The notes under the pieces: generated by a model | The model's database searches: none | Seen by the model: only the letters and a program-made list of their open reading frames with translations | Told to the model about the DNA's origin: nothing | Position numbers and translations under genes: made by a program | Assembly: GCA_947499505.1 (NCBI GenBank) | Contig: CANMOQ010000001.1 | Coordinates: 42,037-106,036 of the forward strand | Reading direction: 5' to 3' | DNA from: an uncultured Erythrobacter sp. | GTDB lineage: Bacteria > Pseudomonadota > Alphaproteobacteria > Sphingomonadales > Sphingomonadaceae | Length of the DNA stretch: 64,000 nt | In this document: piece by piece, positions 9,195 through 62,831 of the stretch | Numbering within the stretch: position 1 is the first letter of the stretch | Layout of the letters: every line of letters starts with the position of its first letter

Positions 9195-9223
9195 TGCGTG
9201 GGACCGATCAGGAGTGAGAGAGC

Positions 9224-14948: not shown

Positions 14949-15237
14949 ACTGGAATCCCTCCCAAAAAACCGCCGCGATGGCGGGTAATATTGCAACCGA
15001 CCGCATCGCTAACATGAGCGATGGAACCAGTTCCTAATCATAAAGGCTAACGCGGGTTTCATGACTTCGGACGTGAAGCTTTACGCAAGATGTCCGAACA
15101 AACCGTAACTTGTCACTAGACCTAAAGTTCGCCTCATCGCGCTTGCGGCACCATATGACTGATCAGACGAGGTGTGTTGTAAGCGACTGGCAAAAAATAG
15201 GTTTTTTACGACCTTCGATGTTCTGCGAAGCGCATTA

Positions 15238-15254
15238 GCTAACTATCGACTAAC
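15238..15254 (+). promoter_or_regulatory. 17-nt motif GCTAACTATCGACTAAC (copy 1; two CTAAC half-sites 11 nt apart)
   Basis: Seen directly. Near-identical copy exactly 180 nt downstream. Lies in the 687-nt non-coding region upstream of the giant gene. Confidence 0.4.
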
Positions 15255-15417
15255 GTATTTTGGTGTGAGGCAAGCCAAGTTTTGCGGCCGATGGTTGGGA
15301 CTTTTCGCAGGGCGTGCGACCGCTGCCATAGGCTTCTCGTAAAGAGCGCGTTTTGGTGGCCCGGGGTTCGGTACAAGGTTGCAGGCTGCGCCTGGGGTGT
15401 TCGGCCTGGCATATGAT

Positions 15418-15434
15418 GCTAACTAAAGACTAAC
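15418..15434 (+). promoter_or_regulatory. 17-nt motif GCTAACTAAAGACTAAC (copy 2)
   Basis: 15 of 17 positions identical to copy 1. About 200 nt upstream of ATG 15636. Confidence 0.4.
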
Positions 15435-15635
15435 TGCTGGCGCTAGTGCTTGATTGCATTAAGACTTTTGTAATCAGAGATCCCCGGCTTAACGTAAATT
15501 TACAACTTCTCATCCCGAGAAGCTGGTGCCAAAGCTGTTTCACTATGATACTGTTTTGGTTATAAAGTAATAATTGCATCGCATCCCTTTGCTGCGAATG
15601 AGGGATGGAATTGCGAATATGGGGTCAGGTCGCGC

Positions 15636-21600: not shown

Positions 21601-24600
21601 ATGGCGGCACAGTGTCGCAAGACTTCGTTTGGACCGTCACCAACCCGGCACCAACCGCCGTCAATGACAACGCGAGCGTCGATGAAGACAGCAGTGTCAA
21701 TGTCGATGTGCTCGGCAATGACAATGATCCTGATGGCGATCCGCTGACCGTCACCAGCGCAACCGCGCCAAATGGCACTGTGGTGATCGAGGCTGATGGC
21801 ACGCTGACTTACACGCCAAATCCTGATTTCAACGGCGAAGACACGATCACTTACACGATCGATGATGGCAATGGCGGCACCTCTACCGCCGCAGTTATCG
21901 TCACCGTCAATCCGATCAATGATGATCCGGTTGCGGTCGATGATGCGGTCACCACCGATGAAGACACGCCGGTTACCATCGGCGTGCTGGGCAATGACAG
22001 CGATGTTGATGGCGATGATCTGACCGTCACGACTGCAACCTCACCTGATGGCACGGTTACGATCAATCCAGATGGCACGTTGGAGTTTGTGCCTGATCCG
22101 AACTTCAACGGCACGACGACAATCTCTTACGAGATTTCGGACGGCAATGGCGGCACAGCGACTGCGACGGTCACCGTTACGGTCAACCCGATCAACGATC
22201 CGCCGGTTGCGAACCCTGATGCGGCGACCACTGATGAAGACACGCCGGTTAATGTACCTCTGATCGGTAATGACACCGATGCTGATGGTGACGCACTGAC
22301 CGTGACCGCTGCAACAGCGGTCAATGGCACTGTCGTAATTAACCCAGATGGTAGCGTTGACTACACGCCGAACCCGGACTTTAACGGCACAGATACAATC
22401 ACTTACACCATAAGTGATGGCAATGGCGGGTTCTCAACCTCGACCGCAACCATCACGGTGAACCCGGTTAACGATGATCCGGTGGCGGCCCCAATCGCGC
22501 CGCAAACCAATGATGATAGCACGCCTGTCACGCTCGATATCAGCGGCAATTTCTCTGACGTTGACGGCGATGATCTGACGTTCAGCGCCACCGGTCTGCC
22601 GCCCGGCCTCAGCATTGATGCCAATGGCAATATCACAGGCACACTTGATCCAGACGCCTCGCAAGGCGGCCCGGCGGGTGACGGGGTGTACGAAGTCACA
22701 GTGACAGCCGATGATGGCAATGGTGGCACGGTCGATACGACCTTCATTTGGACGGTGAACAACCCACCGCCAGAGGCCGTGGATGACACCGCGACGACCG
22801 ATGAAGACACGCCAGTCAACATTCCTGTGCTCGCCAATGATAGCGATCCGGATGGCGATCCGCTGACCGTGACGGCGGCTGATGCGGGCAATGGCACGGT
22901 TGTGATCGAGGCGGATGGCACGGTCACCTACACGCCGAATGAAGACTTCAACGGCACGGATACGATCACCTACACCATCAGCGATGGCAATGGTGGAACC
23001 TCCACCGCGACCGTGACTGTCACGGTTGATCCGGTGAACGATGATCCGGTTGTCACGCCGATTGCGCCGCAAGATAACGTCGACAGCGCGGACGTGTCGC
23101 TGCCAACAGCGGGCAATTTCAGCGATGTTGACGGCGATACGCTGACCTTTAGCGCTACCGGCCTGCCAGCGGGCCTCTCGATCGACCCCAACACGGGCGA
23201 GATCACCGGCACAATTGCTGCGGATGCAAGCCAAGGCGGTCCGGCGGGTGACGGTATCTACTCCGTCACCGTCACGGCGGACGATGGCAATGGCGGCACG
23301 GTCGATACGACCTTCACCTGGACCGTCACCAACCCGCCGCCAGAGGCGGTGGACGATGCGGCAACGACTGACGAAGACACGCCGGTCAATATTCCGGTGC
23401 TCGCCAATGATAATGACCCAGATGGCGATCCGCTGACGGTTACCTCGGCAACCGCGCCAAATGGAACGGTTGTGATCGAGGCGGATGGCACGGTCACCTA
23501 TACGCCGAATGAAGACTTTAACGGCACCGATACAATCACCTACACCATCAGTGATGGCAATGGCGGCACCTCGACGGCGACTGTCACCGTAACGGTTGAT
23601 CCGGTGAACGACGATCCGGTGGCTGACACGCCGCTGGCCAACCTTGCCAATATCGATAGCGCGACCGTCAATGTTCCGGTCGCCGGTAACTTCAGCGATG
23701 TCGATGGCGATGGCCTGACGTTTGGTGCGACAGGCCTGCCTCCAGGTCTCATTATTGATGCGGCTGGTAATATCACCGGCACCATCGATCCCGACGCCTC
23801 GCAAGGCGGGCCAGCGGGTGATGGCATTTACACCGTCAGCGTGACAGCGGATGATGGCAATGGCGGCACGGTAACCAGCAGTTTTGCCTGGACCGTCACC
23901 AACCCGCCGCCAGTGGCCACGGATGATACCGCAACCACGCCAGAGGACACGCCGGTCAATATCGATGTGCTGGCGAACGACAATGATCCCGATGGCGATG
24001 CGCTCACGGTGACATCGGCAATCGCGCCAAACGGTACGGTCGTAATCGAAGCCGATGGCACGGTTACCTACACGCCGAATGAAGACTTCAACGGCACGGA
24101 TACGATTACCTACACGATCAGCGATGGGGAGGGCGGCACCACCACGGCGACCGTCACTGTGACAGTTGATCCGGTCAATGACGACCCGGTCGCTGACCCG
24201 CAGCTGACCAATCAGACCGACGATGACGCCGATGTCATCTCGCTCGATGTGTCTGGCAATTTCAGCGATGTTGATGGTGATACGCTCACCTTCACGGCGA
24301 CCGGCCTGCCGGGCGGACTGTCGATTGACGCCAATGGTGTGATCACTGGCACGCTGGATGCGGATGCATCGCAGGGCGGGCCGAACAGCGATGGACTCTA
24401 CACCGTCACCGTCACGGCCGATGATGGCAACGGCGGCACGACCACATCAACCTTCGTGTGGACCGTGAACAACCCACCGCCGCTTGCTGCGCCTGATACG
24501 GCCAGCACGACGGAAGACATACCGGTCACTGTCGATGTGCTGGCCAATGACAATGATCCAGACGGCGATGCGCTGACTGTGACGGAGGCGAACGCCGCCA

Positions 24601-27600
24601 ATGGCAGCGTTTTGATCAATGCCGACGGCACGATCACTTACACGCCGGATGCAAACTTCAACGGCACGGATACGGTGATCTACACCATCAGCGATGGTGA
24701 GGGCGGTACCTCGACCTCGACCGTGACGATCACTGTTGGCGCGGTAAATGACGATCCAGAAACAATTGGTCTGCCAGATCTCACCGATGGCAATAACGAG
24801 TTGATCGGTGTTCCGCTCGCCCCGGCGTTTAGCGATGCAGAAGGCGACACGCTTACCTTCTCAGCGACAGGCCTACCGGATGGTCTGTCGATTGACCCGG
24901 CCACAGGCGAAGTTACTGGCACTACGACGGGCACAGCCTCAAGTGGAGGGCCGCTGAGCGATGGTGTCTACACCGTCACAGTCACTGCTGACGATGGCAA
25001 TGGCGGAAGCGTAAGCACGACCTTCACCTGGACGATTAACAACGAGCCGCCAACGGCGATCGACGATAACTTCGTCGGTACGGAAGACACGCCACAAGTG
25101 CTCGACGTGCTGGCGAACGATATTGATCCTGATGCCGATCCGATGACTCCAATCGTTATCATCGATGCGCAGGCGACCAATGGCACCGCTGTGGTCAATG
25201 CGGATGGCACGATCACTTTCACGCCGGACCCTGACTTTAACGGCACGGCGACTGTCACTTACACGATCGAAGATGCGAACGGCGATCCAGCGACAGCAAT
25301 CGCGACCATCGTTATCGCGCCAGAAAACGATGCTCCTGATGCGACACCGCTGCCCGACCGCGGCGATGAGGACGGCGATGCTGTTTCCATCGATGCCGGC
25401 GTATTGTTCTCTGACATCGAAGGCGACACGCTGACGTTCAGCGCGACTGATCTTCCAGCGGGCCTGACGATTGATCCTGGTACTGGCATTATCAGCGGGA
25501 CGATTGATCCCGATGCCAGCCAAGTGAACAATGGCGTCTATCAGACCACCATTACCGCTGATGATGGCAATGGCGGCACGACCGATGTGGCTTTTGTCTG
25601 GACGGTGACCAACCCTGGCCCGACGGCCGCGGATGACACGGCCTCGACTGCTGAAGACACGCCAATCCCGTCGATTGATGTACTCGGCAATGATAATGAC
25701 CCGGATGGCGATGCGCTGACCGTGGTGTCTGCCAGCGCACCAAACGGCACAGTTGTCATCAATGCTGACGGCACTTTGGCCTACACGCCGGATCCAGACT
25801 TTAACGGCACCGACACGATCACCTATCAGATCACTGATGGTCAGGGCGGCACGTCCACAGCCATAGTTACAGTGACGGTAGGCGCTGAAAATGACGATCC
25901 GACTGCGCCGCCGCTATCGGCCCTCATCAATGATGATGCCGATGTTGTTGCTTTGGATCTCGCGCCCGGCTTTGCCGATGTCGACGGTGATCCGCTAACG
26001 TTTACCGCGACTGGCCTACCGCCAGGCCTCACCATTGATGCCGCTGGCAATGTCACCGGAACTATCGATCCGGATGCTTCACAGGGCGGGCCGAACGGCG
26101 ATGGCATCTACGAAGTCACCGTCACCGCTGATGATGGCAATGGTGGTACGGTGGATGCGGTATTCACCTGGACCGTTGGCAACCCAGCGCCGCTCGCGGT
26201 GGATGACACGGCGATCACCGATGAGGACACGCCGGTCAATATCCCCGTTCTGGCCAATGACAATGATCCAGACGGCGATCCGCTGAGCGTAACTCAGGCG
26301 AGCGCTGGTAATGGCACCGTTGTGATCGAAGCTGATGGCACGGTCACTTACACGCCGGATGAAGACTTCAACGGCACCGATACGATCACTTACGAGATTT
26401 CGGATGGCAATGGCGGCACCTCGACAGCGACGGTGACCGTAACCGTCAATCCGATCAATGATGATCCGGATGTAACGCCGCTCGCCCCGCGCGAGAATGT
26501 CGATAGCGCAGTCGTGAACGTGCCGACCGCTGGCAATTTCAGCGATGTCGATGGCGACACTCTGACATTTGATGCCACGGGCCTGCCAACTGGCCTCACG
26601 ATTGATCCAGCCACGGGCGTGATCTCTGGCACGATTGATCCATCTGCCTCCATTGGTGGACCGAATGGTGATGGCACTTACGAAGTCACTGTGACGGCTG
26701 ACGACGGCAATGGCGGTACCGTGTCCACCACCTTTAGCTGGACAGTGACCAATCCAGTGCCAGTGGCGGTGAACGACACTGCAACCACCACAGAAGACAC
26801 AGCGACCAATATCGATGTGCTGGCCAATGACAGCGATCCTGATGGCGATCCGCTGACCGTGGTTACTGCCTCTGCGGCGAACGGCACGGTCACGATCCTG
26901 CCCGATGGCACGATTGATTACACGCCGAACCCGGATTTCAACGGGACGGATACGATCTCTTACACGATCAGCGACGGCAATGGCGGCACGGCTTCGGCGC
27001 TCGTCACGGTCACCGTTGATCCAGAGAATGATCCACCAGTGGCCGTTAATGATACGACCACGACCGACGAAGACACGTCGGTTACAATCCCGGTCCTCTC
27101 CAATGACAGCGATGTTGATGGCGATGATTTGACGGTAACCGATGCGACCGCGCCAAACGGCACGGTTACGATCAACCCAGATGGCACGGTGACCTACACG
27201 CCGGATCCCGATTTCAACGGGACCGACACGATCACCTACACCATTGATGATGGCAATGGCGGCACCGACACTGCGACGATCACTGTCGTGGTTGCGCCGG
27301 TCAATGATGCGCCGATTGCGGCGCCTGACACTGCAGACACGGATGAGGACACACCGGTCACCATCCCTGTTCTCGCCAATGACAGCGATGTTGACGGCGA
27401 TCCGCTGACGGTCACCGATGCGACCTCGCCTGATGGCACGGTCACTATCAATCCGGATGGTACGATCACGTTTGAGCCTGATCCGAACTTCAACGGACCG
27501 GCCACCATCACCTACACCATCGATGATGGCATGGGCGGCACCGCAACCTCGACTGTTACGGTCAATGTTGCGCCGGTTAACGATCCGCCTGTTGCGGAAG

Positions 27601-29741
27601 ATGACACGGCAACAACCGACGAAGACACGTCGGTTACTGTTCCGGTACTCGCCAATGACAGCGACGCTGATGGCGATCCGCTGACCATTACGGAGGCGAC
27701 CGCGCCCAACGGTACGGTTGTGATCAACCCAGATGGCACGGTCACCTACACGCCGGATGAGAACTTCAACGGCACCGATGTGATCACCTACACCATCTCT
27801 GATGGCAATGGCGGGTTTGATACGGCCACGCTGACGGTCACGGTTGATCCGGTGAACGACGTGCCGGTGGCTCAGGATGACGCCGCGACTGGAACGGAAG
27901 ATGAGCCGCTCACCATTCCTGTGCTCGCCAATGACGGCGATGCTGACGGTGATCCGCTGACAGTTACAACGGCGACTTCGCCAGATGGCACGGTTACGAT
28001 CAACCCGGATGGCACGATCACCTTTGTGCCGAACCCCGACTTCAACGGGCCAACCACCATCACCTACACGATCGATGATGGCATGGGCGGCACAGCGACG
28101 GCGACAGTCACGGTCGATATTGTCGCCGTGAACGATCCGCCTGTGGGTGAGCCGGATACGGCTGTCACGGATGAAGACACGCCTATCACCATTCCGGTGC
28201 TCGCGAATGACAATGACCCGGATGGCGATCCGCTGACTGTTGTCTCGGCCAATGCGCCGAATGGCACGGTTACGATCAACCCAGATGGCACGATCACTTA
28301 CACGCCGAACCCGGACTTCAACGGCACCGATACGATCACCTATCAGGTGAGCGACGGCATGGGCGGCTTTGACACGGTGACGGCAACCGTCACGGTCAAT
28401 CCGGTCAATGATCCGCCGGTTGCGGGCAATGACGTCACCAGCGTGAATGAGGACAGCGAAGTCACCATCCCAGTGCTGGTCAACGACACTGATGCCGATG
28501 GCGATCCGCTGACGGTGACAACCGCAACCGCCACCAACGGTACGGTTACGATCAACCCTGATGGCACGATCACCTATGTGCCGAACCCCGATTTCTTCGG
28601 TCAGGATACGATCACTTACACGATCAGTGATGGCAATGGCGGCACGTCAACAGCGACCGTCGCGGTTGAGGTTATCAACACCAACGAGCCGCCGGTTGAT
28701 GAGCCTGAAGCTCTCAACGTAATCAGCGGCACCGACACGATCATTAATGTGCTCGACAATGCGACCGATCCAGATGGTGACCCTCTGGAAGTGGTGATCG
28801 CACTCGTCGACATTGGCGAAGTGGTGATCAATCCTGATGGCACGCTTACTTATAGCGCGCCAGCAGACTTCTTCGGCGAAGTGACGATCCGCTACTTCAT
28901 CTCTGATGGTCAAGGCGGCTTTGTGGAGAGCTTTGCCACGATCACCGTGGTTGAGGCTGCGGCTGATATCGGCTTCCTGATCGGCGAGGAGCCTGATCCA
29001 GGCATTCCTAATGCCTATCCGGTTGATCGAGTGCTGGACCAGAGCGACGCCTTTATCAGCACGCCGCTGATCATCCTCGATACGGTCAATGATTTCCGCT
29101 CGCTTGGCGGCATGGGCACGCTCAACGTCGATCAGCCATTGCTGAACGCAGTGAACGGCCTGCGCTCCTTGAACGGCATTGGCGGATTTGACGCCAATGG
29201 CAGCCCGATTGACGATGTGGTTGGCTATATCGATCACATCCGCGACCTGCGCTTTGGTGTGGACCGTCTGTTCGATCCGCGCTTTGGCGACTTCCTGCCA
29301 GAGGCGCTGACCGGCTTCTCCGTGCGGCAACTCGATACCGGCAGCGACCAGGTCATGATCGAGAGTATTTCGCGCGACCGTGTGGTCTATGTCGAAATGC
29401 GCGATATTGGCGCGGACGATGCCCCTCGGATCACCGAATATCAGCTGGTTACGCGCGATGGTGCGCCGCTGCCTGATTGGATCCGGATGGATGCTCGCGG
29501 TCTGGCGATCATTGAACGTCCCGTTGATGCAGAGACGCTCAGACTGGTTGTTCGCGCAATCCGGGCTGATGGCGAAGTGATTGAGATCCCTGTTGTTATT
29601 CAGGGCGCAACCGGTGAAATACAGCTGGATGAGGCGATTGCAGAAGCAGTGGCCAGGGCTGAAACACTTGATACGATGATGGCACGCGCCAGTGGCGAAG
29701 CCGATGACGAAGCAAGCAAACTGCTTGCAGCTTTTAGTTGA
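15636..29741 (+). CDS. Giant (4701 aa) repetitive cadherin-like / Ig-like adhesin-type surface protein
   Basis: Single uninterrupted 14,106-nt ORF. N-terminus has ALEPRMMFDGAG and no hydrophobic Sec leader. Contains a DUF4347-like domain, then about 25 modules of ~92 aa (DEDTPV..VLANDxDPDGDxLTV..NGTV..DGT.TYTPN.DFNGTDTITYTISDG.GG) interleaved with about 15 He_PIG-like modules (LTFSATGLPPGLSIDPxTGxIxGTI). The ~260-aa non-repetitive C-terminal domain has no GGxGxD nonapeptides. Confidence 0.95.
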   Translation: MTKKQAASRHILALEPRMMFDGAGVVTAITADIGPMAVAPGEYTFNEASVAPVNLDIRSDISSGIGDDVGSGLSAQPVGFLFGNRSEGSEALHPQFEFHDEVREGSTPRAIIDAMRDYRATAMYGVERALADGFFAEPSDDAVVAQSGEVPNDFIFIDTSVDNYEQLAEIWEGRGTIVFVDANSDGVDQVLTALAGASDVGAIHFVSHGEDGMFWLGDTRIDSAALTGELASAFASIGSKLSADGDILIYGCDVGNDAEGQALLNNLAAITGADIAASIDDTGSIARGGDWTLENRLGVVESASLVAREWGGLLAPTNISAPADSLTVRDGSGNIIATGGTGFGNAGGRSGDVGVGGTGTWVNVGTVNGQSISIRATVVSISAGDTVRFDRPTSGDDDPGFLLRSNGGPVATAEIRWDIFFTATGAPVEIDVSYTVADIDGVGGNTNSREFVVVDTDTLSSFQAANGSNVAFDTSVPGQVTASGTQNESSGVPSAARFNWLDTSSFTITYNIDPASGVPQAGFSHDGDLDFNLGTGGTTVSIPRLDLDNNNSTASGSAYEGTFVENGSAVGIVDRDVRITNPNGSVEGLTVTLTNAQTGDELLVNGSNAATGTLNGGISYTRTATEIILTGAANSAQYQNALRAITFQTAGERPDETPRTIDISFENAALNSNVATSTINVVEINDPPTAVNDAQITTDEDVPILNIDVLGNDFDGDGDPLTVISANASNGTVIINGDGTLAYVPNSNFSGTDTITYTISDGRGGTDTATVPIVIGPVNDNPTTNGNLPPQTNVDAQQGIFVNAASGFSDAEDPNNLTYSATGLPPGLSIDPNTGFITGNIDNSASQGGSGGIYNVVVTATDSGGLTAEQNFSWTVTNPAPQANNDGGSTLEDTPVTFDVLANDQDPDGDDISVVSASAPNGSVVINADGTITYTPNANFSGPETITYTISDGEGGTSTATVSLFVTAQNDDPVAVGSLPPQVNDDADAGISVQTAGGFADVDNANLVYSATGLPPGLSIDANTGEITGTIDNSASQGGVAGVYNVTITANDNVGGAPATQTFSWTVSNPAPTAANDTATTDEDTPVDIPVLANDNDPDGDDLSIVSATAPNGTVVVNADGTITYTPNADFNGTDTITYTISDGEGGTSQATVAVTVGAVNDPPVPVGALPAQTNLDADSGISLATAGGFADSDDTNLVYSAAGLPPGLSIDSATGEITGTIDNSASTGGTGGVYNVTVTATDPSGESADQDFSWTVTNPAPIAVDDTASTTEDTPVLIDVLPNDSDPDGDVLTVISAFSSVGQATLVGNQINFVPPANFNGTATITYTISDGEGGTSEATVTVTVAPENDDPDSTPIPPVDALDGDTVSVPVADAFSDVDGDTLTFSATDLPPGLTIDPDTGVISGTITPDASQTNGGVYTGTITVDDGNGGTTTETITFNVANPPPEAVNDNASTDEDVAVTIDVLANDSDPDVDPLTVTSADAQNGTTVINADGTVTYTPNPGFNGTDTITYEISDGNGGTSIATVTVVVNDINDTPEISGSIGDQTNLDAQEINLPVAGAFSDPDGDALSFTAIGLPAGLTIDPDTGVISGTIDNSASQVNGGSYSITVTADDGRGGTISQDFTWTVANPAPIAANDAVTTDEDTPVNVDVLANDVDPDGDDLTVIEAEAGNGTVTINADGTLVYTPNPDFNGTDTIVYTIDDGEGGVSSASVDVTVTPVNDGPTTVGLPNQSGEDSQTVSIPTASAFNDVDGDVLTFSAEGLPPALSIDPDTGVISGTLASDSSQNGPFVVTVTATDPSGEEVSTTFIYSVQNVPPIAQNDTATTPEDTPVTIAVLANDSDPDGDALTITSASADNGTVVVNADGTVTFTPDPDFNGEANVTYTVSDGQGGVATATLTVTVTAENDDPAAVDIPDVTNEDNQSVSIATESFFSDVDGDDLTITAAGLPPGLSIDPTTGIISGTLDIDASQGSPYTVTLTADDGNGGTVSQDFVWTVTNPAPTAVNDNASVDEDSSVNVDVLGNDNDPDGDPLTVTSATAPNGTVVIEADGTLTYTPNPDFNGEDTITYTIDDGNGGTSTAAVIVTVNPINDDPVAVDDAVTTDEDTPVTIGVLGNDSDVDGDDLTVTTATSPDGTVTINPDGTLEFVPDPNFNGTTTISYEISDGNGGTATATVTVTVNPINDPPVANPDAATTDEDTPVNVPLIGNDTDADGDALTVTAATAVNGTVVINPDGSVDYTPNPDFNGTDTITYTISDGNGGFSTSTATITVNPVNDDPVAAPIAPQTNDDSTPVTLDISGNFSDVDGDDLTFSATGLPPGLSIDANGNITGTLDPDASQGGPAGDGVYEVTVTADDGNGGTVDTTFIWTVNNPPPEAVDDTATTDEDTPVNIPVLANDSDPDGDPLTVTAADAGNGTVVIEADGTVTYTPNEDFNGTDTITYTISDGNGGTSTATVTVTVDPVNDDPVVTPIAPQDNVDSADVSLPTAGNFSDVDGDTLTFSATGLPAGLSIDPNTGEITGTIAADASQGGPAGDGIYSVTVTADDGNGGTVDTTFTWTVTNPPPEAVDDAATTDEDTPVNIPVLANDNDPDGDPLTVTSATAPNGTVVIEADGTVTYTPNEDFNGTDTITYTISDGNGGTSTATVTVTVDPVNDDPVADTPLANLANIDSATVNVPVAGNFSDVDGDGLTFGATGLPPGLIIDAAGNITGTIDPDASQGGPAGDGIYTVSVTADDGNGGTVTSSFAWTVTNPPPVATDDTATTPEDTPVNIDVLANDNDPDGDALTVTSAIAPNGTVVIEADGTVTYTPNEDFNGTDTITYTISDGEGGTTTATVTVTVDPVNDDPVADPQLTNQTDDDADVISLDVSGNFSDVDGDTLTFTATGLPGGLSIDANGVITGTLDADASQGGPNSDGLYTVTVTADDGNGGTTTSTFVWTVNNPPPLAAPDTASTTEDIPVTVDVLANDNDPDGDALTVTEANAANGSVLINADGTITYTPDANFNGTDTVIYTISDGEGGTSTSTVTITVGAVNDDPETIGLPDLTDGNNELIGVPLAPAFSDAEGDTLTFSATGLPDGLSIDPATGEVTGTTTGTASSGGPLSDGVYTVTVTADDGNGGSVSTTFTWTINNEPPTAIDDNFVGTEDTPQVLDVLANDIDPDADPMTPIVIIDAQATNGTAVVNADGTITFTPDPDFNGTATVTYTIEDANGDPATAIATIVIAPENDAPDATPLPDRGDEDGDAVSIDAGVLFSDIEGDTLTFSATDLPAGLTIDPGTGIISGTIDPDASQVNNGVYQTTITADDGNGGTTDVAFVWTVTNPGPTAADDTASTAEDTPIPSIDVLGNDNDPDGDALTVVSASAPNGTVVINADGTLAYTPDPDFNGTDTITYQITDGQGGTSTAIVTVTVGAENDDPTAPPLSALINDDADVVALDLAPGFADVDGDPLTFTATGLPPGLTIDAAGNVTGTIDPDASQGGPNGDGIYEVTVTADDGNGGTVDAVFTWTVGNPAPLAVDDTAITDEDTPVNIPVLANDNDPDGDPLSVTQASAGNGTVVIEADGTVTYTPDEDFNGTDTITYEISDGNGGTSTATVTVTVNPINDDPDVTPLAPRENVDSAVVNVPTAGNFSDVDGDTLTFDATGLPTGLTIDPATGVISGTIDPSASIGGPNGDGTYEVTVTADDGNGGTVSTTFSWTVTNPVPVAVNDTATTTEDTATNIDVLANDSDPDGDPLTVVTASAANGTVTILPDGTIDYTPNPDFNGTDTISYTISDGNGGTASALVTVTVDPENDPPVAVNDTTTTDEDTSVTIPVLSNDSDVDGDDLTVTDATAPNGTVTINPDGTVTYTPDPDFNGTDTITYTIDDGNGGTDTATITVVVAPVNDAPIAAPDTADTDEDTPVTIPVLANDSDVDGDPLTVTDATSPDGTVTINPDGTITFEPDPNFNGPATITYTIDDGMGGTATSTVTVNVAPVNDPPVAEDDTATTDEDTSVTVPVLANDSDADGDPLTITEATAPNGTVVINPDGTVTYTPDENFNGTDVITYTISDGNGGFDTATLTVTVDPVNDVPVAQDDAATGTEDEPLTIPVLANDGDADGDPLTVTTATSPDGTVTINPDGTITFVPNPDFNGPTTITYTIDDGMGGTATATVTVDIVAVNDPPVGEPDTAVTDEDTPITIPVLANDNDPDGDPLTVVSANAPNGTVTINPDGTITYTPNPDFNGTDTITYQVSDGMGGFDTVTATVTVNPVNDPPVAGNDVTSVNEDSEVTIPVLVNDTDADGDPLTVTTATATNGTVTINPDGTITYVPNPDFFGQDTITYTISDGNGGTSTATVAVEVINTNEPPVDEPEALNVISGTDTIINVLDNATDPDGDPLEVVIALVDIGEVVINPDGTLTYSAPADFFGEVTIRYFISDGQGGFVESFATITVVEAAADIGFLIGEEPDPGIPNAYPVDRVLDQSDAFISTPLIILDTVNDFRSLGGMGTLNVDQPLLNAVNGLRSLNGIGGFDANGSPIDDVVGYIDHIRDLRFGVDRLFDPRFGDFLPEALTGFSVRQLDTGSDQVMIESISRDRVVYVEMRDIGADDAPRITEYQLVTRDGAPLPDWIRMDARGLAIIERPVDAETLRLVVRAIRADGEVIEIPVVIQGATGEIQLDEAIAEAVARAETLDTMMARASGEADDEASKLLAAFS
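16090..16520 (+). other. DUF4347-like N-terminal domain of the giant protein
   Basis: FIFIDTSVDNYEQLAE...VFVDANSDGVDQVLTALAG...IHFVSHGEDGMFWLGDT...ILIYGCDVGNDAEGQALLNNLAAITGADIAASIDDTG. Recognised from memory of this family, not searched. Confidence 0.55.
17700..28960 (+). repeat. Coding tandem-module array: (C-H)x7, C, C, (C-H)x8, Cx8. C is a cadherin-like ~92-aa module; H is a He_PIG-like ~97-aa module
   Basis: Counted by reading the translation. Each C module has an acidic DxDxDGD putative Ca-binding motif. Modules are delimited by (V/I)ND(D/P)P or NP(A/P)P junctions. Confidence 0.8.
22772..24481 (+). repeat. Three consecutive 570-nt C+H units with the highest mutual similarity
   Basis: Unit starts at 22772, 23342 and 23912 (next at 24482), exactly 570 nt apart. 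The protein is nearly identical across the C modules, but the DNA differs at many synonymous third positions (for example acctacacg/acctatacg, gacttcaac/gactttaac). Confidence 0.8.
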
Positions 29742-29766: not shown

Positions 29767-31263
29767 ATGAATAAGGGACTTGCACTGGTAAGCGTATCGA
29801 CACTCTTCCTGGGTGCCTGCGCAACTGTACCCGAGCCGTTCACGGCGGCAGAATTGAACGAGACGGCAGCCAGCAATTTTGAGCGGGTTGATGTGGATCA
29901 GGAGCCGGTTACGGCGCCGATTGACCTTTACGAGGCGATGGCCCGCTCGCTGAAATACAATCTCGACTACAAGGTTGAGCTCATGGAGATTGCGCTGCGC
30001 GACCGCGAGCTTGATCTTCAGCGTTACGATATGCTGCCGCAATTGGTTGCCAGCGCTGGCTATGCCGGACGCAACAACTTCTCTGGCGCGAGCTCGCTCT
30101 CGTTGATCACCCGGCGGCAATCGCTGGAGCCATCAACCTCGCAGGAACGCGACCTGTTTACCGCAGATCTCGCACTCAGCTGGGACGTGCTTGATTTCGG
30201 CCTGTCTTATGTCCGGGCCAAGCAAGGCGCGGATGAAGTTCTGATCGCGCAGGAGCGCCGCCGCAAGGTTGCCAACCGCGTGATTGAAGATGTGCGGTCC
30301 TCCTATTGGCGTGCGGTCAGCGCCGAACGCCTGCTGACCAAGCTGCAAGAGCTGGAAGATTCGGTCACCACAACGCTGCAAAGTTCAGAGCGTTTGGCCG
30401 AGCGGCGTCTGTCTGCTCCGCTTACCGCGCTGACTTATCAGCGTGAACTGCTGGAAATTCAGGCGCAAATTCGCAAGCTTCAGCGCGAGCTGGTGGTTGC
30501 AAAGGCGCAATTGGCCGCGCTCATGAACCTGCGCCCTGGCACTGAGTTCTCGCTCGCTTTGCCAGATCGCACCAACACTTTGCCTGCGGTCAATTACCAA
30601 GGCGAAGACATGATGATGACGGCGCTGCTCAATCGTCCAGAGCTGCGCGAGGTTAGCTATCGCCAACGGATCAATTCGCGCGAATTGGATGCGGCATTGC
30701 TTTCAGCTCTGCCGAGCTTCCGCGGTGTCCTTGGCGTCAACGTCGATTCCAATGACTTCCTGTTTAACAATGACTGGATGAACTACGGCGCCCGCGCCAG
30801 TTGGAACGTCCTCAACCTGTTCCGTTTGCCAGCGCATAAGAAGGCCGTGCGCGCACAGGAAGATCTGCTGGAGCAGCGCGAATTGGCGCTGACCATGGCG
30901 GTGATGACACAGGTTCATGTCTCGCGTGCACGCTTTAGCCATCTGAGCGAAGAACTCGATACGGCATCACGCCAGATGAAGGTGCAGGACAAGATCCTCG
31001 ATCAAATCCGTTCCGGCCATAAGGCTGGCGCAATGAGCCGCCAAACGCTGCTGCGTGAAGAGATGAACACGCTCGCCGCAGAGGTGAAATATGACATCGC
31101 CTATGCAGAGGCGCAAAACGCCTATGCTGGTCTGTTTGCCTCCATGGGCATCGACGAGTTTAGTCCAAACGTGACCGGACGCGAAGATGTCGCTACTCTG
31201 CGCGCATCACTGGAGCAAATGTGGCAGGACCGCGAAGCTGCGGTAAAGCTGTCTGGAAGTTAA
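29767..31263 (+). CDS. TolC-family outer-membrane efflux lipoprotein
   Basis: ORF track start is 29692. I prefer ATG 29767 (MNKGLALVSVSTLFLGAC, with lipobox), preceded by GAAGGTGAG, 25 nt after the giant gene stop. Two OEP-like coiled-coil halves are recognisable. Confidence 0.85.
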   Translation: MNKGLALVSVSTLFLGACATVPEPFTAAELNETAASNFERVDVDQEPVTAPIDLYEAMARSLKYNLDYKVELMEIALRDRELDLQRYDMLPQLVASAGYAGRNNFSGASSLSLITRRQSLEPSTSQERDLFTADLALSWDVLDFGLSYVRAKQGADEVLIAQERRRKVANRVIEDVRSSYWRAVSAERLLTKLQELEDSVTTTLQSSERLAERRLSAPLTALTYQRELLEIQAQIRKLQRELVVAKAQLAALMNLRPGTEFSLALPDRTNTLPAVNYQGEDMMMTALLNRPELREVSYRQRINSRELDAALLSALPSFRGVLGVNVDSNDFLFNNDWMNYGARASWNVLNLFRLPAHKKAVRAQEDLLEQRELALTMAVMTQVHVSRARFSHLSEELDTASRQMKVQDKILDQIRSGHKAGAMSRQTLLREEMNTLAAEVKYDIAYAEAQNAYAGLFASMGIDEFSPNVTGREDVATLRASLEQMWQDREAAVKLSGS

Positions 31264-31266
31264 AAC

Positions 31267-32262
31267 ATGAGTGACATTGAGCAGGTGGACGAGGGATCAC
31301 CGCCCGCAGAAGATGGAAACCGCAAGCTGTTGATCGGCGGCGGCGTGCTTGCTGTGGCTGCAGCCATTGCAGGGGTCGTCTACGCGGGCAGCGGCGACAC
31401 GCAGTGGTCGGATAATGCGACCGTGGCCTCGGCAGAGCAGGCGGAACTGGCAGCGGGCGAGGGCAGCGATGCCGCCCCGGAACCTGAGCCAGAACCGGTG
31501 CTAGAGGCGCGCGGCGTGATCGCGGCAAAGAACGAGAGCACAGTGGCCTCGCGCATGACCGCGCGGATCACCTCTATGCCGTACCGCGAGGGGCGCAGCT
31601 TTGGCAAAGGCGCTTTGCTTGCACGGTTTGATTGCTCCACCATTCAGGCTGAATTGAACGCGGCCCGCGCCGCAACCGCCGCCTATCAAAAGACCTATGA
31701 GACCAACGTTGAACTCGACAGTTATGAGGCTGTTGGCAAAAATGAAGTGGCGGTCTCGCGCGCCAATCTTGGCCGGGCGCAGGCAGAGGCCAATGCGGTC
31801 TCGGCCCAGCTGCGCGACTGCGCGGTCTATGCGCCATTCGCTGGCACTGTGGTGGAAGAGATCGCGAGTCGCGGCGAAGTGGCCGCCAGTGGTCAGCCGC
31901 TGCTGCGCATTCAAAGCGGCGGCGATCTGGAAGCCGATCTGATCGTTCCCAGCAATTGGCTGACCTGGCTTGAGCCAGGGGCGAAGTTTGACTTCGTGAT
32001 TGACGAGACAGGCGCTAGCATTACCGGCGTCGTCACCCGGTTGGGCGCATCGGTTGACCCGGTCAGTAAGACGATCCGCATCGGAGCCAATATTGATCGC
32101 GGCGATGCTTTGGTCCTGCCCGGGATGAGCGGCACGGCGACGTTCGAAAAGCCAAGCGAGGCACCTGCGGAGACAGAAGAAGCGGGCGAAGGCGCGGCTG
32201 AAGGCGAAGCGAGCGGAGCGGCCACGGAAGGGGCTGAAGCCGATGGCAGCCAGCCAACCTGA
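31267..32262 (+). CDS. Membrane-fusion protein (HlyD/RND-adaptor type) 1
   Basis: Starts 3 nt after the upstream stop. N-terminal TM anchor LLIGGGVLAVAAAIAGVVY. Lipoyl-like halves (GVIAAKNESTVASRMTARITSM; VYAPFAGTVVEEIASRGEVAASGQPLLRI) flank a short coiled coil. Acidic Glu/Ala/Gly C-terminal tail. Confidence 0.8.
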   Translation: MSDIEQVDEGSPPAEDGNRKLLIGGGVLAVAAAIAGVVYAGSGDTQWSDNATVASAEQAELAAGEGSDAAPEPEPEPVLEARGVIAAKNESTVASRMTARITSMPYREGRSFGKGALLARFDCSTIQAELNAARAATAAYQKTYETNVELDSYEAVGKNEVAVSRANLGRAQAEANAVSAQLRDCAVYAPFAGTVVEEIASRGEVAASGQPLLRIQSGGDLEADLIVPSNWLTWLEPGAKFDFVIDETGASITGVVTRLGASVDPVSKTIRIGANIDRGDALVLPGMSGTATFEKPSEAPAETEEAGEGAAEGEASGAATEGAEADGSQPT

Positions 32263-33634
32263 TCCGATTGAGGCCGCTGCGCCCAAAGTCAGCTCTCTGG
32301 CCCCCAAAAGCGCGGCGCCTGATGCGGCAAAGCTCGCCGCGCTTCTGCAATTCGAGGCGGATATCCGCCGCCTAGAAACCGTCGAAGAGCTGCAATATTT
32401 TGTCGCCAATGAGGCGCGTCAGGTTTTGCCTTACGGCCAGATGTTTGTGCTGCGCCAGGCGCGGATCGGGCAGGGGTTTGAGGTGCAATGCGCCTCGTCC
32501 CTGGCGACCGTTGACCGCAATGCGCCGCTGATCCACGCGCTGGAAAAGGCGATTGAGCGCCTCGCTCAGGATCACGGGCTAGAACAGCCCAACGCTTTTG
32601 ACGCGGCTAGCCTGCGCGCGGATGAGGCCTTTGACCAATATCCCTATTCTCAGCTGCATTGGCAGCCTCTGCTCGGCAAGGCCGGCGAAGTTTTCGGCGC
32701 AATGCTGTTTGCCCGCGATGAGCCATTGCGCGAGGGCGAGAAGTACCGCGCGGCCCGCATTGCCGAGACGGCGGCGCATTCCTGGCTGGCGCTGAGCGGC
32801 GGCAAGCCTGTTCGCCGCCTGCCCGTGATCGACAGCAAGAAGAAGAAATGGATCGCGGTCGCTATCGCCGTCATCCTGCTGTTCCCAGTGCGCCTGACCG
32901 CTTTGGCTCCGGCTGAGATCGTTGCTGAGCGGCCCTACATTGTAGCTGCGCCATTTTCGGGCCGGATTGCCTCGATCGAAGTCCCTCCGAATGCTCCGGT
33001 GAAGGCTGGTCAAGTGCTGCTGCGCTTTGACGACGTGCGGCTCGATAATGAGCTGGAGCTGGCCGAGGAAAGGCTGGCTGTTGCTCGCTCGCGGCTCGAA
33101 CGCTCCACCAGCTCTGCCTTTAGTGACGAGGACGAGACCTCCGATATTGCGATCATGCGGGCCGAGGTTGAGGTCGCGCAGGCCGAATATGATTATGCGA
33201 AAGAGCTCGCCGGACAATCCGCGATCACCGCTCAGCGCGACGGCATGGCTCTGTTCAGCGATCGCCGCGATTGGGAAGGGCGCGCGGTCAATGTTGGCGA
33301 TCCCATCATGCAGGTCGTCAATCCAGACGAGGTGATGATCCGCATCGATTTGCCCGCGGCAGAGCAGATGTCGCTGGAAAAGGGCGCCAAGATCAAGATG
33401 TGGCTCGATTCCCAGCCATTGTGGGCCATCGACGGCCTACTGGAGACGGCGAGCTATCAGGCCCGCCAGACGCCCGATGGAACGCTGGCCTTTGCGCTCA
33501 CCGCGCGTCTGGATGGCGATAACCCTCGGATTGGATCGCGCGGCACGGCTCAGGTCTATGGCCGCTGGGTGCCGTTTGCTTACTCGCTGCTGCGCCGTCC
33601 AATCGCGGCCCTGCGCCAATTTGTCGGACTATGA
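32243..33634 (+). CDS. Membrane-fusion protein 2 with an N-terminal cytoplasmic GAF-like domain
   Basis: 20-nt overlap with the upstream gene. About 190 cytoplasmic residues (LETVEELQYFVANEARQVLPYGQMFVLR...VFGAMLFARDEPL; GAF assignment is low confidence). TM segment KKKWIAVAIAVILLFPV. Then a HlyD-like lipoyl/coiled-coil/barrel region (IVAAPFSGRIASIEVPPNAPVKAGQVLLRFD). Confidence 0.75.
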   Translation: MAASQPDPIEAAAPKVSSLAPKSAAPDAAKLAALLQFEADIRRLETVEELQYFVANEARQVLPYGQMFVLRQARIGQGFEVQCASSLATVDRNAPLIHALEKAIERLAQDHGLEQPNAFDAASLRADEAFDQYPYSQLHWQPLLGKAGEVFGAMLFARDEPLREGEKYRAARIAETAAHSWLALSGGKPVRRLPVIDSKKKKWIAVAIAVILLFPVRLTALAPAEIVAERPYIVAAPFSGRIASIEVPPNAPVKAGQVLLRFDDVRLDNELELAEERLAVARSRLERSTSSAFSDEDETSDIAIMRAEVEVAQAEYDYAKELAGQSAITAQRDGMALFSDRRDWEGRAVNVGDPIMQVVNPDEVMIRIDLPAAEQMSLEKGAKIKMWLDSQPLWAIDGLLETASYQARQTPDGTLAFALTARLDGDNPRIGSRGTAQVYGRWVPFAYSLLRRPIAALRQFVGL

Positions 33635-35790
33635 GCTCAGCGGCGATCCCCATTGATTTGCCGGAGATACCAAAGCCGCCTCCGCTGCCCGCCTTGAGGC
33701 AGGAATTGCGGATCGAACCGGGCGCGCCGCTGGTCAATGGAGCGCCCAGTTGGAACCTGTTTGACCCGGTCCGCCACGCGTTCTTTCAGCTGGGTCAGAT
33801 CGAGTTTGTGATCTTCTCGCATTGGGCGAGCGGCAATCTGGCGAGGATTGGTGATGATCTGGAACAGCGCGGCCTCACCAGCGACGAATCCAATGATGCG
33901 TTCAATGCCGTCGTAGAATTCGCCGCGACCAATGGCCTTACGGTTGGCCCAGTGGGGCGGGACAGTGTCTCTGCCTTTATGGAGCAGCGCGCCAGCAACA
34001 AAAAAGCGGCGTGGAAGTGGTTGCTCGACAATTATCTCTTTATTCGCATTCCCTTGGTGAAGCCTGCGCGCTTTCTGGAGCGCACGATTGAGCACGTCCG
34101 TCCGCTGTGGTCGCTTTACAGCTTGGTGTTCTTCGCTGCGCTCGCGCTCACCAGCCTGTTTCTGGTTTCGCGCCAGTGGGATGCCTTCATGGCGGCGTTT
34201 CTCTATTTCTTCAGCTGGCAGGGCCTGATCGCTTACGGCGCAGGCTTGTTTTTTGTGAAGATCCTGCACGAACTCGGGCACGCCTACACCGCCACCCGCT
34301 ATGGCTGCCGCGTGCCGACCATGGGGGTCAGCTTTCTGGTTATGATGCCGGTGCTCTACACCGATACGACTGCGGCCTGGCGGCTGACATCGCGCAAGAA
34401 ACGCCTGGCGATTGACTGCGCGGGCGTGGCGGCGGAGCTGATGGTCGCCAGCATTGCGACGATGCTGTGGGTGATCCTGCCCGATGGCACCGCGCGCAGC
34501 GTCGCCTTTATCCTGGCGACGACCAGCTGGATCATGAGCCTCGCGATCAATCTCAATCCGTTCATGCGCTTCGATGGCTATTACGTGCTGTCGGACTTTC
34601 TCAACGTGCCCAATTTACAGCCGCGCGCCTTTGCTCTGGGCAAGTGGAAGATGCGCGAAATCCTGTTCGGGCTGGGTGTCGATGCCCCGGAAGAAGTGCC
34701 GCGCAAGCTGCGGCGCGGGATGATCATCTATGCCTATGCGACCTGGATTTACCGCCTGTTCCTGTTCACCGGGATTGCGATCCTGGTCTATAATCTGTTT
34801 TTCCAACCGCTCGGCCTGATCCTGGCGATTGTGGAGCTGGCGGTGTTTATCGGCCGTCCGGTTTTTGCCGAAATGCGCGAGTGGGCTGGTCTGCGCAAAT
34901 CGATCACGAGCACCCGCCGGGGCAAGGCGTGGTTTTGGATATTGGGAGGGTTGCTGCTGGCTGCGTTCCTGCCGCTCGACCGGCATGTGACCGGCTATGC
35001 CGTCCTGACGCCGGTTGGCGCTGCGCCGATTGTCTCTGGAGAGCCCGCGCGCGTGGTCAAAGTGATTGCGCAGAATGGCCAGACGGTCACCGCAGGTGAT
35101 CCGATCATAGAGCTCGATGCGCCGGAACTGGCAGCCGACGCCGCCTCTACCAAAGTGCGGATCGCTCAGCTTGAGCTCCAAATGGGCCGCTCTATGGCCG
35201 ACAGCCGGGACCGCTCCAACCGCGCTGTTCTGGAGCGAGAGCTGGCGCGGGAGCGCGGCAAGCTGGCTGGACTGGAACGACGCGCTGACAAGCTGATCCT
35301 GCGCGCGCCGGGGCCGGGCACGGTCTCCGGCCTGATGCCCGATATGCATCCCGGACGCTGGATAGGCGGCGAAGAAGTGATCGCCCATGTTGTCACGCCG
35401 AGCGATTATGACGTTCAGGCCTATGTGCCAGAGGACGAGATTTGGCGCCTCAGCGATGGCGCGCTGGGCACATTTGTCGCTGCCGACGCGGGCGGGCCGT
35501 CCCGCTCTGCCAAGCTGGTGGAGATGTCGTCCAGCGCGATTGCGAGGCTAGAGCAGCCCATCCTCGCCTCCACCAATGGTGGGCCCATTGCTGTCGATAA
35601 AGACGGTGAGGAGCTGGCCCCGCGAGAGGCGCTGTACCGCATTCGGATGATCGCCGAAAAAGGCGCGCTCAGCGGCGCAGATTATCAGATCCAGCTGGTG
35701 CCGGGATCAGTTCAAATCCGCACCGAAGGGCGCTCTTTTGCGGAGTGGGCGGCGACCGAGCTGGCGCGCATGTTCCGCCGCATTTTCTGA
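33631..35790 (+). CDS. Site-2-protease (peptidase M50) membrane metalloprotease fused to a C-terminal HlyD-type membrane-fusion domain
   Basis: ATGA overlap with the upstream gene. HELGH at 34267-34281 within a TM region. Second S2P motif NLNPFMRFDG at 34549-34578. C-terminal lipoyl/coiled-coil region (PIVSGEPARVVKVIAQNGQTVTAGDPIIELDAPEL...IAQLELQM...). About 170 N-terminal residues of unknown fold. Confidence 0.8.
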   Translation: MSSAAIPIDLPEIPKPPPLPALRQELRIEPGAPLVNGAPSWNLFDPVRHAFFQLGQIEFVIFSHWASGNLARIGDDLEQRGLTSDESNDAFNAVVEFAATNGLTVGPVGRDSVSAFMEQRASNKKAAWKWLLDNYLFIRIPLVKPARFLERTIEHVRPLWSLYSLVFFAALALTSLFLVSRQWDAFMAAFLYFFSWQGLIAYGAGLFFVKILHELGHAYTATRYGCRVPTMGVSFLVMMPVLYTDTTAAWRLTSRKKRLAIDCAGVAAELMVASIATMLWVILPDGTARSVAFILATTSWIMSLAINLNPFMRFDGYYVLSDFLNVPNLQPRAFALGKWKMREILFGLGVDAPEEVPRKLRRGMIIYAYATWIYRLFLFTGIAILVYNLFFQPLGLILAIVELAVFIGRPVFAEMREWAGLRKSITSTRRGKAWFWILGGLLLAAFLPLDRHVTGYAVLTPVGAAPIVSGEPARVVKVIAQNGQTVTAGDPIIELDAPELAADAASTKVRIAQLELQMGRSMADSRDRSNRAVLERELARERGKLAGLERRADKLILRAPGPGTVSGLMPDMHPGRWIGGEEVIAHVVTPSDYDVQAYVPEDEIWRLSDGALGTFVAADAGGPSRSAKLVEMSSSAIARLEQPILASTNGGPIAVDKDGEELAPREALYRIRMIAEKGALSGADYQIQLVPGSVQIRTEGRSFAEWAATELARMFRRIF

Positions 35791-35874: not shown

Positions 35875-36797
<923 letters not shown>

Positions 36798-36818
36798 TTG
36801 GTTGGAAAGGAGCCGGCC

Positions 36819-37190
36819 ATGAGCCGAAACATTCGCATACTTACAGTAGATGACAGCCCCAGCATGCGCGCCTTGCTGCGCCATTCTCTGACCGAACAGG
36901 GGGTTGAGGTGGAACAGGCCGAAGATGGCGAGATTGCACTGTCGTGGCTGGCCTCGAACGAGGTCGATTTGGTGATCACTGATATCAACATGCCGAACCT
37001 CGATGGATTTGGCCTGATTGAGGAGTTGCGCGCCAGCGCCCGCCATGCGGAGCGGCCCATTCTGGTGCTCAGCACTGAAAGCTCAGCGGAAAAGAAGCAG
37101 CGGGCCCGCAATGCCGGGGCGACCGGTTGGATCGTAAAACCATTCGACGCGGAAAAGCTGGCTGTTGCCGTGCGCCGCGTGATCCATTGA
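36819..37190 (+). CDS. cheY: CheY-like single-domain response regulator
   Basis: ATG 36819 after GGAAAGGAG. Receiver residues in LTVDDS, DLVITDINMPNLDG, LSTES and VKPF. Confidence 0.88.
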   Translation: MSRNIRILTVDDSPSMRALLRHSLTEQGVEVEQAEDGEIALSWLASNEVDLVITDINMPNLDGFGLIEELRASARHAERPILVLSTESSAEKKQRARNAGATGWIVKPFDAEKLAVAVRRVIH

Positions 37191-37211
37191 GCGAAGGGAA
37201 AGAGAGAAACG

Positions 37212-37652: not shown

Positions 37653-37927
37653 CAAAACAAGTTATCCCCTCAGAGCTGCTCGGAAATATCTCGGGCGAGC
37701 TCATTCAGCTGGCCGAGATTGTCGAAGGCCTCGGCGAGGCATTGTGCGGTGATGAGCAGGTGCTCTCCAAGCATCTATCGCAATTGCAATCGGTCGATCT
37801 GGTGTCGCAGTCGCTGCGCTGTCAGGCGGGCCTGCTGGCGTCGGATAATGCCATTGCCGATATCGAAAAGGTCAGCCTGCAGGATTTGCAGGACCGTTTA
37901 TCCAAAGGACTTGAGTGCCTGAGATAG
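37649..37927 (+). CDS. Hypothetical 92-aa protein translationally coupled to cheW
   Basis: ATGA overlap with the cheW stop. GC3-rich codon usage like its neighbours. I recognise no family. Confidence 0.55.
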   Translation: MTKQVIPSELLGNISGELIQLAEIVEGLGEALCGDEQVLSKHLSQLQSVDLVSQSLRCQAGLLASDNAIADIEKVSLQDLQDRLSKGLECLR

Positions 37928-39133: not shown

Positions 39134-39152
39134 GGTCAGGACAGATAATCGT

Positions 39153-62828: not shown

Positions 62829-62831
62829 TGT

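Follow-up and report, generated by a model that had tools for sequence, protein, structure and literature searches.

A conserved five-gene module sets a TolC-family channel, three membrane-fusion modules, and an RRE-bearing site-2 protease beside giant adhesin-like proteins

How bacteria form biofilms, colonise surfaces, and interact with hosts is shaped by giant repeat adhesins, and to our knowledge the export of these proteins has so far been explained only by type I secretion systems (T1SS) driven by ATP-binding cassette (ABC) transporters, by two-partner secretion, or by autotransporter routes. A 64,000-nucleotide stretch from an uncultured Erythrobacter sp. (contig CANMOQ010000001.1, positions 42,037 to 106,036; hereafter the window) raises the question of how such a protein is handled when its neighbours fit this picture only in part. 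In the window, the gene for a giant adhesin-like protein is followed by four genes encoding a TolC-family outer membrane factor (OMF), two membrane-fusion proteins (MFPs), and an intramembrane site-2 protease (S2P) fused to a third MFP domain. The initial annotation, made from the letters alone, offered two answers: an envelope-spanning machine for the adhesin in which the protease occupies the position of the inner-membrane pump, or an independent system for peptide processing and efflux that happens to lie next to the adhesin. We find that the four genes and the giant gene are one conserved five-gene module, and that this module is probably an undescribed system. Full-text literature searches found no published description of the cassette, nor any experimental characterisation, just as the initial annotation had supposed; an M50 component is likewise absent from the accessible part of a major 2021 review on tripartite systems.

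All five genes lie on the forward strand. The open reading frame (ORF) of the giant, the presumed substrate (4,701 aa; 15636..29741), is followed by the OMF (29767..31263), MFP1 (31267..32262), MFP2 (32243..33634), and a 719-aa protein (33631..35790) that joins an RRE domain (RiPP recognition element; RiPP, ribosomally synthesised and post-translationally modified peptide) to the S2P and the third MFP domain. The ORF map reproduces exactly the coordinates first reported for the four cassette genes (29767-35790) and every junction length, namely a 25-nt gap after the giant, a 3-nt gap between OMF and MFP1, a 20-nt overlap between MFP1 and MFP2, and a 4-nt overlap (ATGA) between MFP2 and the fusion protein. 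The cassette genes are translationally coupled and tightly packed. Terminator-like sites across the cassette number 8 against 7.4 expected from shuffled sequence, i.e., there is no excess.

By its close relatives (89-99% identity), the window belongs to Erythrobacter; a single-sequence search of genome contigs returned three near-identical loci, all from this genus. As this search had given Erythrobacter only, more diverse loci were drawn from plasmid records and metagenome contigs. The 14 independent loci compared here are those for which a full-length homologue of the fusion protein was examined, and they cover alpha-, beta-, and gamma-proteobacteria: sphingomonads (the window, L007, L009, and L010), Comamonadaceae (L001, L018, L019, and L027), Azospirillum-type bacteria (L002, L020, and L026), the 36-kb Magnetospirillum plasmid pMSR-1 (L003), the Cupriavidus CH34 megaplasmid (L012), and the E. 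coli IncF plasmid pABWA45_1 (L011). Gene order was the same in all 14 of them, with a large same-strand protein followed by the OMF, an MFP, an N-terminally extended MFP, and the RRE-S2P-MFP fusion, the OMF gene missing in L027 only. Chance can hardly account for an arrangement that is found, in this identical order, in 14 independent loci. The Comamonadaceae contig L027 (1-10566), which carries the giant, two MFPs, and the fusion protein, adjoins phage-like genes for tape-measure and terminase proteins.

The proteins encoded upstream differ in size (492 aa to more than 16,000 aa) and in repeat family. Among them are tandem-95/cadherin giants with DUF4347, a 492-aa ELWxxDGT/He_PIG protein, Big_13 proteins, and a 4,457-aa "Ig-like" protein in E. 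coli. Given such diversity, what the cassette is linked to is a large protein of the secreted type and not any single family. The downstream flanks differ in every locus and comprise an integrase, WS/DGAT, type II secretion genes, insertion sequence (IS) elements, phage genes, and che genes. The proposed link between cassette and giant is thereby upheld: a large same-strand protein lies directly upstream in 14/14 of these subtype-1 loci, and in 4/4 loci of a second subtype described below. As the large protein is constant on the upstream side and nothing is constant on the downstream side, the second answer of the initial annotation, an unrelated neighbouring peptide-efflux system, is very unlikely.

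The module moves as a unit on plasmids. A homologue of the fusion protein was found in 24 of 5,426 complete E. coli genomes, mostly on plasmids, and the five-gene module, with the 4,457-aa "Ig-like" DUF4347 giant, is present on plasmids of both E. coli and Citrobacter. In E. coli it occupies about 20 kb; IS1 copies lie close downstream in pABWA45_1, and IS5/IS1 copies lie on either side of the module in the 69-kb IncFIA/FIB plasmid NZ_CP081687.1 (L029). The latter plasmid also carries a diguanylate cyclase gene (8006-9388).

An inner-membrane pump was sought in two ways. Pfam searches with the long ORFs of the window, the giant gene excepted, found none of the families ABC_tran, ACR_tran, MFS_1, MacB_PCD, and FtsX, and among the window's ORFs of at least 150 aa, none with a Walker A motif also has an ABC signature. 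Both results agree with the earlier statement that the 64-kb window encodes no ABC, RND, or MFS pump, and for the window's own genome the negative result for ABC genes covers these 64 kb. In all 14 loci, no T1SS-type ABC gene lies within 10 kb on either side, and no ABC exporter is encoded on the whole of pMSR-1 (all 39 features inspected) or on the whole of the 69-kb E. coli plasmid. Of the defining parts of a T1SS, the module has HlyD-type MFPs (three modules) and a TolC-family OMF and does not have the ABC transporter; it also has no inner-membrane transporter, the defining part of RND, MFS, and MacB-type tripartite pumps.

The OMF matches Pfam OEP in two stretches (8.4e-38) and reaches only 19 bits against TIGR01844, far under the cut-off. 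Its N-terminus (MNKGLALVSVSTLFLGAC) is lipoprotein-like (…LFLGAC), and, with the lipobox-like LGAC read from the sequence, the OMF is a probable lipoprotein, in line with its first description as a TolC-like lipoprotein. MFP1 is the plain periplasmic adaptor it was taken for, with one N-terminal transmembrane (TM) anchor (aa 21-39), 101.7 bits against TIGR01730 RND_mfp (cut-off 94.9), and matches to Pfam HlyD_3 and HlyD_D23. MFP2 is laid out as a cytoplasmic domain, a TM helix (aa 204-222), and a periplasmic MFP part that matches Pfam HlyD_3 (1.8e-12) and Biotin_lipoyl_2. HlyD_3 scores above its cut-off in all three MFP modules, and their coiled-coil hairpins are of similar length, about 65-70 aa.

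The first ~200 residues of MFP2 had no match in Pfam or in a PDB profile search, and their alignment with the GAF region of the second subtype by hhalign reached only E=0.25. The AlphaFold2 (AF2) model of aa 1-200 has a pLDDT of 85.5, and its top 50 Foldseek matches in the PDB are all GAF domains (E ~5e-7, probability 1.0). In the second subtype, the counterpart of MFP2 matches Pfam GAF (1.6e-14). The N-terminal domain of MFP2 (aa ~25-185; nt 32315-32797) is thus predicted to have a GAF fold, and the GAF-like domain suggested earlier is correct at the fold level only, the sequence-level searches having given nothing.

In the fusion protein, the profile scans suggested with the initial annotation place both Pfam assignments above their cut-offs, Peptidase_M50 with 30.3 bits (cut-off 27.2) and HlyD_3 with 32 bits (cut-off 22.2; 2.2e-7), so that an M50 protease joined to an MFP is indeed encoded here. 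The periplasmic HlyD-type domain (aa ~450-719; 34978..35787) also matches TIGR01843 type_I_hlyD (3.2e-11), under its cut-off. The S2P membrane domain (34066..34965), supported by Foldseek, motif conservation, and predicted helices, contains about seven TM helices and both M50 motifs, HELGH (aa 213-217; nt 34267-34281) and NLNPFMRFDG (aa 307-316; nt 34549-34578), intact. Residues H213, E214, H217, N307, P310, and D315, among others, are invariant in 12 diverse homologues of both subtypes, as are the general motifs HExxH and NxxPxxxFDG. Because HELGH and NLNPFMRFDG are invariant in these 12 homologues, the protease is under selection as an enzyme.

The nearest curated relatives of the M50 part are RiPP leader peptidases, daptide_HExxH (1.2e-44) and YydH/LiaK (8e-9). 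The scores are 153 bits against an equivalog cut-off of 300 for NF041824 and 35.5 bits against 225 for NF058609. As to a RiPP context, there is no precursor gene in the operon and no modification gene in the operon or in nearby ORFs of the window. The fusion protein is a true member of the M50/S2P family that lies outside the curated RiPP peptidase families. This family is large, with at least 4,400 relatives at 90% clustering. Clustering at 50% identity (E<=1e-30) gives 3,478 groups, of which the 150 best matches are without exception full-length fusions of ~700 aa. Database names for the fusion are "HlyD family efflux transporter periplasmic adaptor subunit", "site-2 protease family protein", and "putative peptide zinc metalloprotease", the last being the automatic name that the initial annotation had given.

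A new finding, missed in the earlier reading, is the domain at the N-terminus of the fusion protein (aa ~20-105; 33688..33945). In a PDB profile search, the top two matches of the N-terminal ~105 aa were PqqD (3g2b, E=0.009) and the lasso-peptide RRE TfuB1 (6jx3, E=0.010). In the AF2 model of aa 1-445 (pLDDT 76.8), this region forms three strands (27-31, 40-45, and 50-54) followed by three helices (56-67, 71-79, and 84-100), and Foldseek pairs it with TbiB1 with bound leader (probability 0.99) and with CteB (0.96). The homologues of the second subtype match Pfam PqqD and are labelled "PqqD family" at NCBI. The model and these matches indicate a PqqD-like RRE fold, for which peptide binding is predicted. 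For the S2P membrane part, the top Foldseek match is MjS2P of M. jannaschii (3b4r, E=1.2e-3, probability 1.0). A transporter-like fold was considered for this domain and rejected, as every match besides MjS2P and RRE proteins had a probability below 0.2. The suggestion that the protease itself takes the pump position or translocates the adhesin is not borne out by this search, which returned a plain S2P plus RRE and nothing transporter-like. With about seven TM helices, the predicted topology would make the RRE cytoplasmic and the MFP domain periplasmic.

The giant of the window contains 25 tandem-95 repeats (NCBIfam), Cadherin_4/5 and Big_9 domains (Pfam), and a DUF4347 domain (aa 155-306; 16098..16553; Pfam PF14252, E=2.7e-45). 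Aspartate and glutamate make up 16.1% of its residues and lysine and arginine 1.3%, with a single cysteine; no RTX nonapeptides and no Sec-type hydrophobic core were found in the whole 4,701-aa protein. Proteins that, like T1SS substrates, leave the cell unfolded and in one step typically have such a composition.

Near its N-terminus, the giant carries a LEPR-like leader (aa 10-30; 15663..15725; …HILALEPRMMFDGAG, consensus ALEPRxMFDGA). Similar leaders are found in the giants of E. coli (RFALESRQLFDGAA), Variovorax (AMALEARYMFDAAA), and L019 (VLALESRYMFDAAA), so that across the four loci checked the leader is common to alpha-, beta-, and gamma-proteobacterial giants of the DUF4347 type. It also resembles the LEPRxLLS motif of the giants of the second subtype. 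Against NF012209 LEPR-8K the window giant scores 17.0 bits, exactly the 17-bit cut-off (E=0.0034), and a profile hidden Markov model (HMM) trained on the leaders from E. coli, Variovorax, and L019 ranked it as the best held-out match among 3,978 ORFs (E=0.0034). The C-terminal tail of the substrates is conserved within clades only.

DUF4347 was considered as the determinant of the linkage and rejected, as a DUF4347 protein of Phaeobacter inhibens stands alone and several cassette substrates have no DUF4347. The linkage expected with DUF4347/cadherin giants therefore holds in one direction: a large protein is always found upstream of the cassette, but a DUF4347 protein can occur without one. 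The Phaeobacter protein (plasmid pPGA1_262, L028; 19983-25160) has 1,725 aa, starts directly with DUF4347 without a LEPR leader, and has no TolC/MFP/S2P cassette nearby; such a gene is present on forty Phaeobacter plasmids.

A sister subtype of the module, subtype 2, has homologues at 22-29% identity and was found at four loci on Rhodobacterales and Thalassospira plasmids. This subtype, together with the RRE domain and the LEPR-like leader, had escaped the earlier reading. Its upstream proteins are LEPR-XLL giants of up to ~12,900 aa or an RTX protein (the substrate in L013 has RTX repeats), and it keeps the GAF-MFP, the RRE-S2P-MFP fusion, and a short MFP; a TolC protein was found in one locus. 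Three of the four loci, on Rhodobacterales plasmids, encode a truncated SecA paralogue of 650-675 aa (L013 11754-13712, L014 12687-14711, and L015 11818-13803) with SecA_DEAD, PPXD, and P-loop domains. These paralogues score 540-585 bits against SecA models, under the cut-offs; NBD1, PPXD, and NBD2 are present, the C-terminal part is missing, and the genes adjoin those of giant LEPR-XLL or RTX proteins. Public annotations name them "prepilin peptidase", "DEAD/DEAH box helicase", or "SecA", the first two being mis-annotations. Two of the four loci have a gene for DUF3467 (L015 7542-7823 and L017 7510-7806), which we take to be a member of the SecB-like superfamily, and one has a SapC gene (L014 11873-12694). 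The sister subtype hints that a SecA-type ATPase is able to drive such a machine.

The likely target of the cassette is the giant protein beside it. With less assurance, we lean towards the view that the module is a dedicated, T1SS-like, envelope-spanning export and processing apparatus for that adhesin, and infer the following mechanism. The three MFP modules, with hairpins of similar length, would assemble into one mixed ring docked on the TolC-like channel, with the RRE-S2P-MFP protein in charge of recognition and processing. Through its RRE, this protein would bind a signal at one end of the adhesin, for which the LEPR-like leader, in view of how RiPP leaders are recognised, is the best candidate. 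Its S2P would then cut the leader signal as a processing or release step, like C39 in peptidase-containing ABC exporters or LapG for LapA, while the GAF domain might gate the system on a cytoplasmic ligand. The motor would be encoded outside the module, and a SecA-type ATPase, here the housekeeping SecA, is the preferred candidate because subtype 2 encodes a truncated SecA paralogue, sometimes with DUF3467. Next in order after SecA come the proton motive force, together with a Ca2+-driven folding of the cadherin-like repeats outside the cell, and then an ABC transporter encoded at an unlinked site. A bolder proposal, which we put forward tentatively and with distinctly less confidence, is that the module is a self-sufficient, previously unrecognised, and categorically new Gram-negative secretion system. 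In such a system, TolC, a mixed three-adaptor ring, and an RRE-bearing intramembrane protease replacing the ABC transporter would recognise a LEPR-type leader and draw power from SecA, a SecA paralogue, or the proton motive force with a folding ratchet.

Several observations weigh against an export apparatus of this kind. The module encodes nothing that would transduce energy, Foldseek found no transporter-like fold in the S2P model, and we know of no S2P enzyme that translocates polypeptides. The Magnetospirillum substrate and that of the Azospirillum-type locus L020 have no LEPR leader, yet the RRE is kept; because of these two cases, the pairing of leader and RRE is not universal. A common C-terminal motif of the substrates (…F-x-x-Q-[IV]…LLAA[FL]), picked out by eye, failed in held-out cross-clade HMM tests. 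In addition, DUF4347 proteins occur without the cassette, as in Phaeobacter.

The alternative that best survives the evidence is an accessory device for retention, release, or quality control of the giant, which would itself be exported by a canonical T1SS encoded elsewhere. The S2P would cut a LEPR anchor and the GAF domain would sense a signal, forming a functional analogue of LapD/LapG. Such a device would sit well with a module without a motor, with an S2P fold that is that of a plain protease, and with GAF domains being typical sensor modules. The RTX repeats of the L013 substrate also speak for it, as does the existence of LEPR-XLL giants with C-terminal RTX/T1SS-type domains (PMC10868602). 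However, a TolC homologue of its own and three MFP modules would be needless for release, and the module travels on plasmids free of ABC exporters into hosts such as E. coli. Moreover, an ABC exporter was seen in 0/14 neighbourhoods, and the window giant is without RTX repeats. On balance we regard this alternative as rather unlikely.

We give very little credence to a RiPP-like system of peptide processing and efflux, in which the RRE would bind a small peptide to be cut by the M50 domain and the adhesin would be a mere neighbour. The kinship of the M50 domain with RiPP leader peptidases, the RRE itself, and the export of RiPPs by HlyD-type proteins are what one would look for in such a system. 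However, the tightly coupled operon leaves no space for a precursor gene, no modifying enzymes are encoded nearby, and the NCBIfam score is far under the equivalog cut-off (153 vs 300 bits). The large protein also stays upstream in every locus of both subtypes while the other neighbours vary. A device for signalling by regulated intramembrane proteolysis, in which the S2P would cleave a membrane regulator according to the condition of the adhesin or the envelope while the MFPs and TolC pump an unrelated small molecule, could call on the GAF sensor domain and on the classical role of S2P enzymes such as RseP and SpoIVFB in signalling, but it is highly improbable: the module has no conserved anti-sigma factor, sigma factor, or transcription-factor gene and no pump protein, and the covalent joining of the protease to an MFP and an RRE in ~3,500 clusters argues for a conduit role.

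Upstream of the giant gene, a 640-nt non-coding leader or promoter region (14997..15635, forward strand) is without a long ORF and contains a single sigma-70-like site at 15545-15574. A 17-nt direct repeat, GCTAACTAxxGACTAAC, occurs in it at 15238 and 15418, a spacing of 180 nt, and could be a regulator binding site. A riboswitch, for example for cyclic di-GMP, was considered for the same region and rejected, with no Rfam match even at E<=1.

The region directly 3′ of the cassette (35878-37927) starts with a cheB reduced to its 3′ half (Pfam CheB_methylest, positions 94-174 of 174); cheD, a cheY-like receiver gene, cheW, and an ORF of 92 aa come next. In two related Erythrobacter loci, L004 and L005, the sequence ~100-200 nt past the cassette is homologous to the window from ~37650/37997 onward, and the ~1.7-kb che fragment is missing from that position; in L006 it is found ~7 kb further from the cassette. 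Because it is missing at the equivalent position in two related Erythrobacter genomes, the che fragment is a local, genome-specific insertion outside the module. Further away, the window carries two clusters of tryptophan-halogenase-like flavoprotein genes (14-7369 and 55684-63908; five copies in total), each adjoining a TonB-dependent receptor and one also accompanied by a DUF6445 gene and a LacI-type regulator. Another protein of the window, 773 aa long (38973-41294), consists of a VTT (DedA-type) membrane domain joined to a complete pyridine-nucleotide-disulphide oxidoreductase that includes the dimerisation domain.

The constant linkage of giant proteins to a module without an ABC pump implies either a new way of energising and gating TolC-dependent export or a new layer of processing and release by intramembrane proteolysis. 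Either outcome would provide a first function for the "putative peptide zinc metalloprotease" family, with its thousands of clusters, and for the LEPR-XLL leader, and would place the RRE in a new context outside RiPP biosynthesis. The ~20-kb module on E. coli plasmids offers a directly testable and genetically tractable model.

Among known systems, the T1SS for giant adhesins (HlyBD-TolC, LapBCE/LapA, and SiiCDF/SiiE) likewise have a TolC-family OMF and HlyD-type adaptors beside a giant adhesin, with operon-like, tightly coupled genes and a giant, acidic, cysteine-poor substrate without a signal peptide. They differ in having an ABC transporter and one MFP, where the present module has three MFP modules and, as its polytopic inner-membrane part, an S2P with an RRE. 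In addition, the window substrate has no RTX repeats, and its conserved terminal feature is N-terminal and LEPR-like rather than a demonstrable C-terminal signal. In peptidase-containing ABC transporters with an MFP and TolC (CvaAB-TolC, colicin V), a leader-recognising protease is joined to the conduit and processing is coupled to export, as we infer here. Their protease, however, is a cytoplasmic C39 cysteine peptidase and their cargo a peptide, whereas the present protease is an intramembrane zinc S2P without ABC domains and the presumed cargo has thousands of residues.

The RiPP intramembrane leader peptidases (daptide MpaP and YydH/LiaK) are the nearest sequence relatives of the M50 domain, and the predicted RRE fold matches the leader-binding PqqD-like domains of lasso peptide and sactipeptide systems. 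The fusion protein is set apart from these peptidases by scores far under their cut-offs, by its MFP domain, by the lack of a precursor or modification enzyme, and by its linkage to giants and TolC. With LapD/LapG there may be a functional analogy only, in that a cytoplasmic sensor controls the protease which removes an N-terminal part of a giant adhesin. There is no homology, LapG being a periplasmic cysteine protease of the C93 family and LapD a HAMP-GGDEF-EAL receptor for cyclic di-GMP. TriABC-OpmH, finally, combines an RND pump with two MFPs, unlike the three MFP modules without a pump described here. What it has in common with the module is a ring, below a TolC-type channel, that presumably contains more than one distinct MFP.

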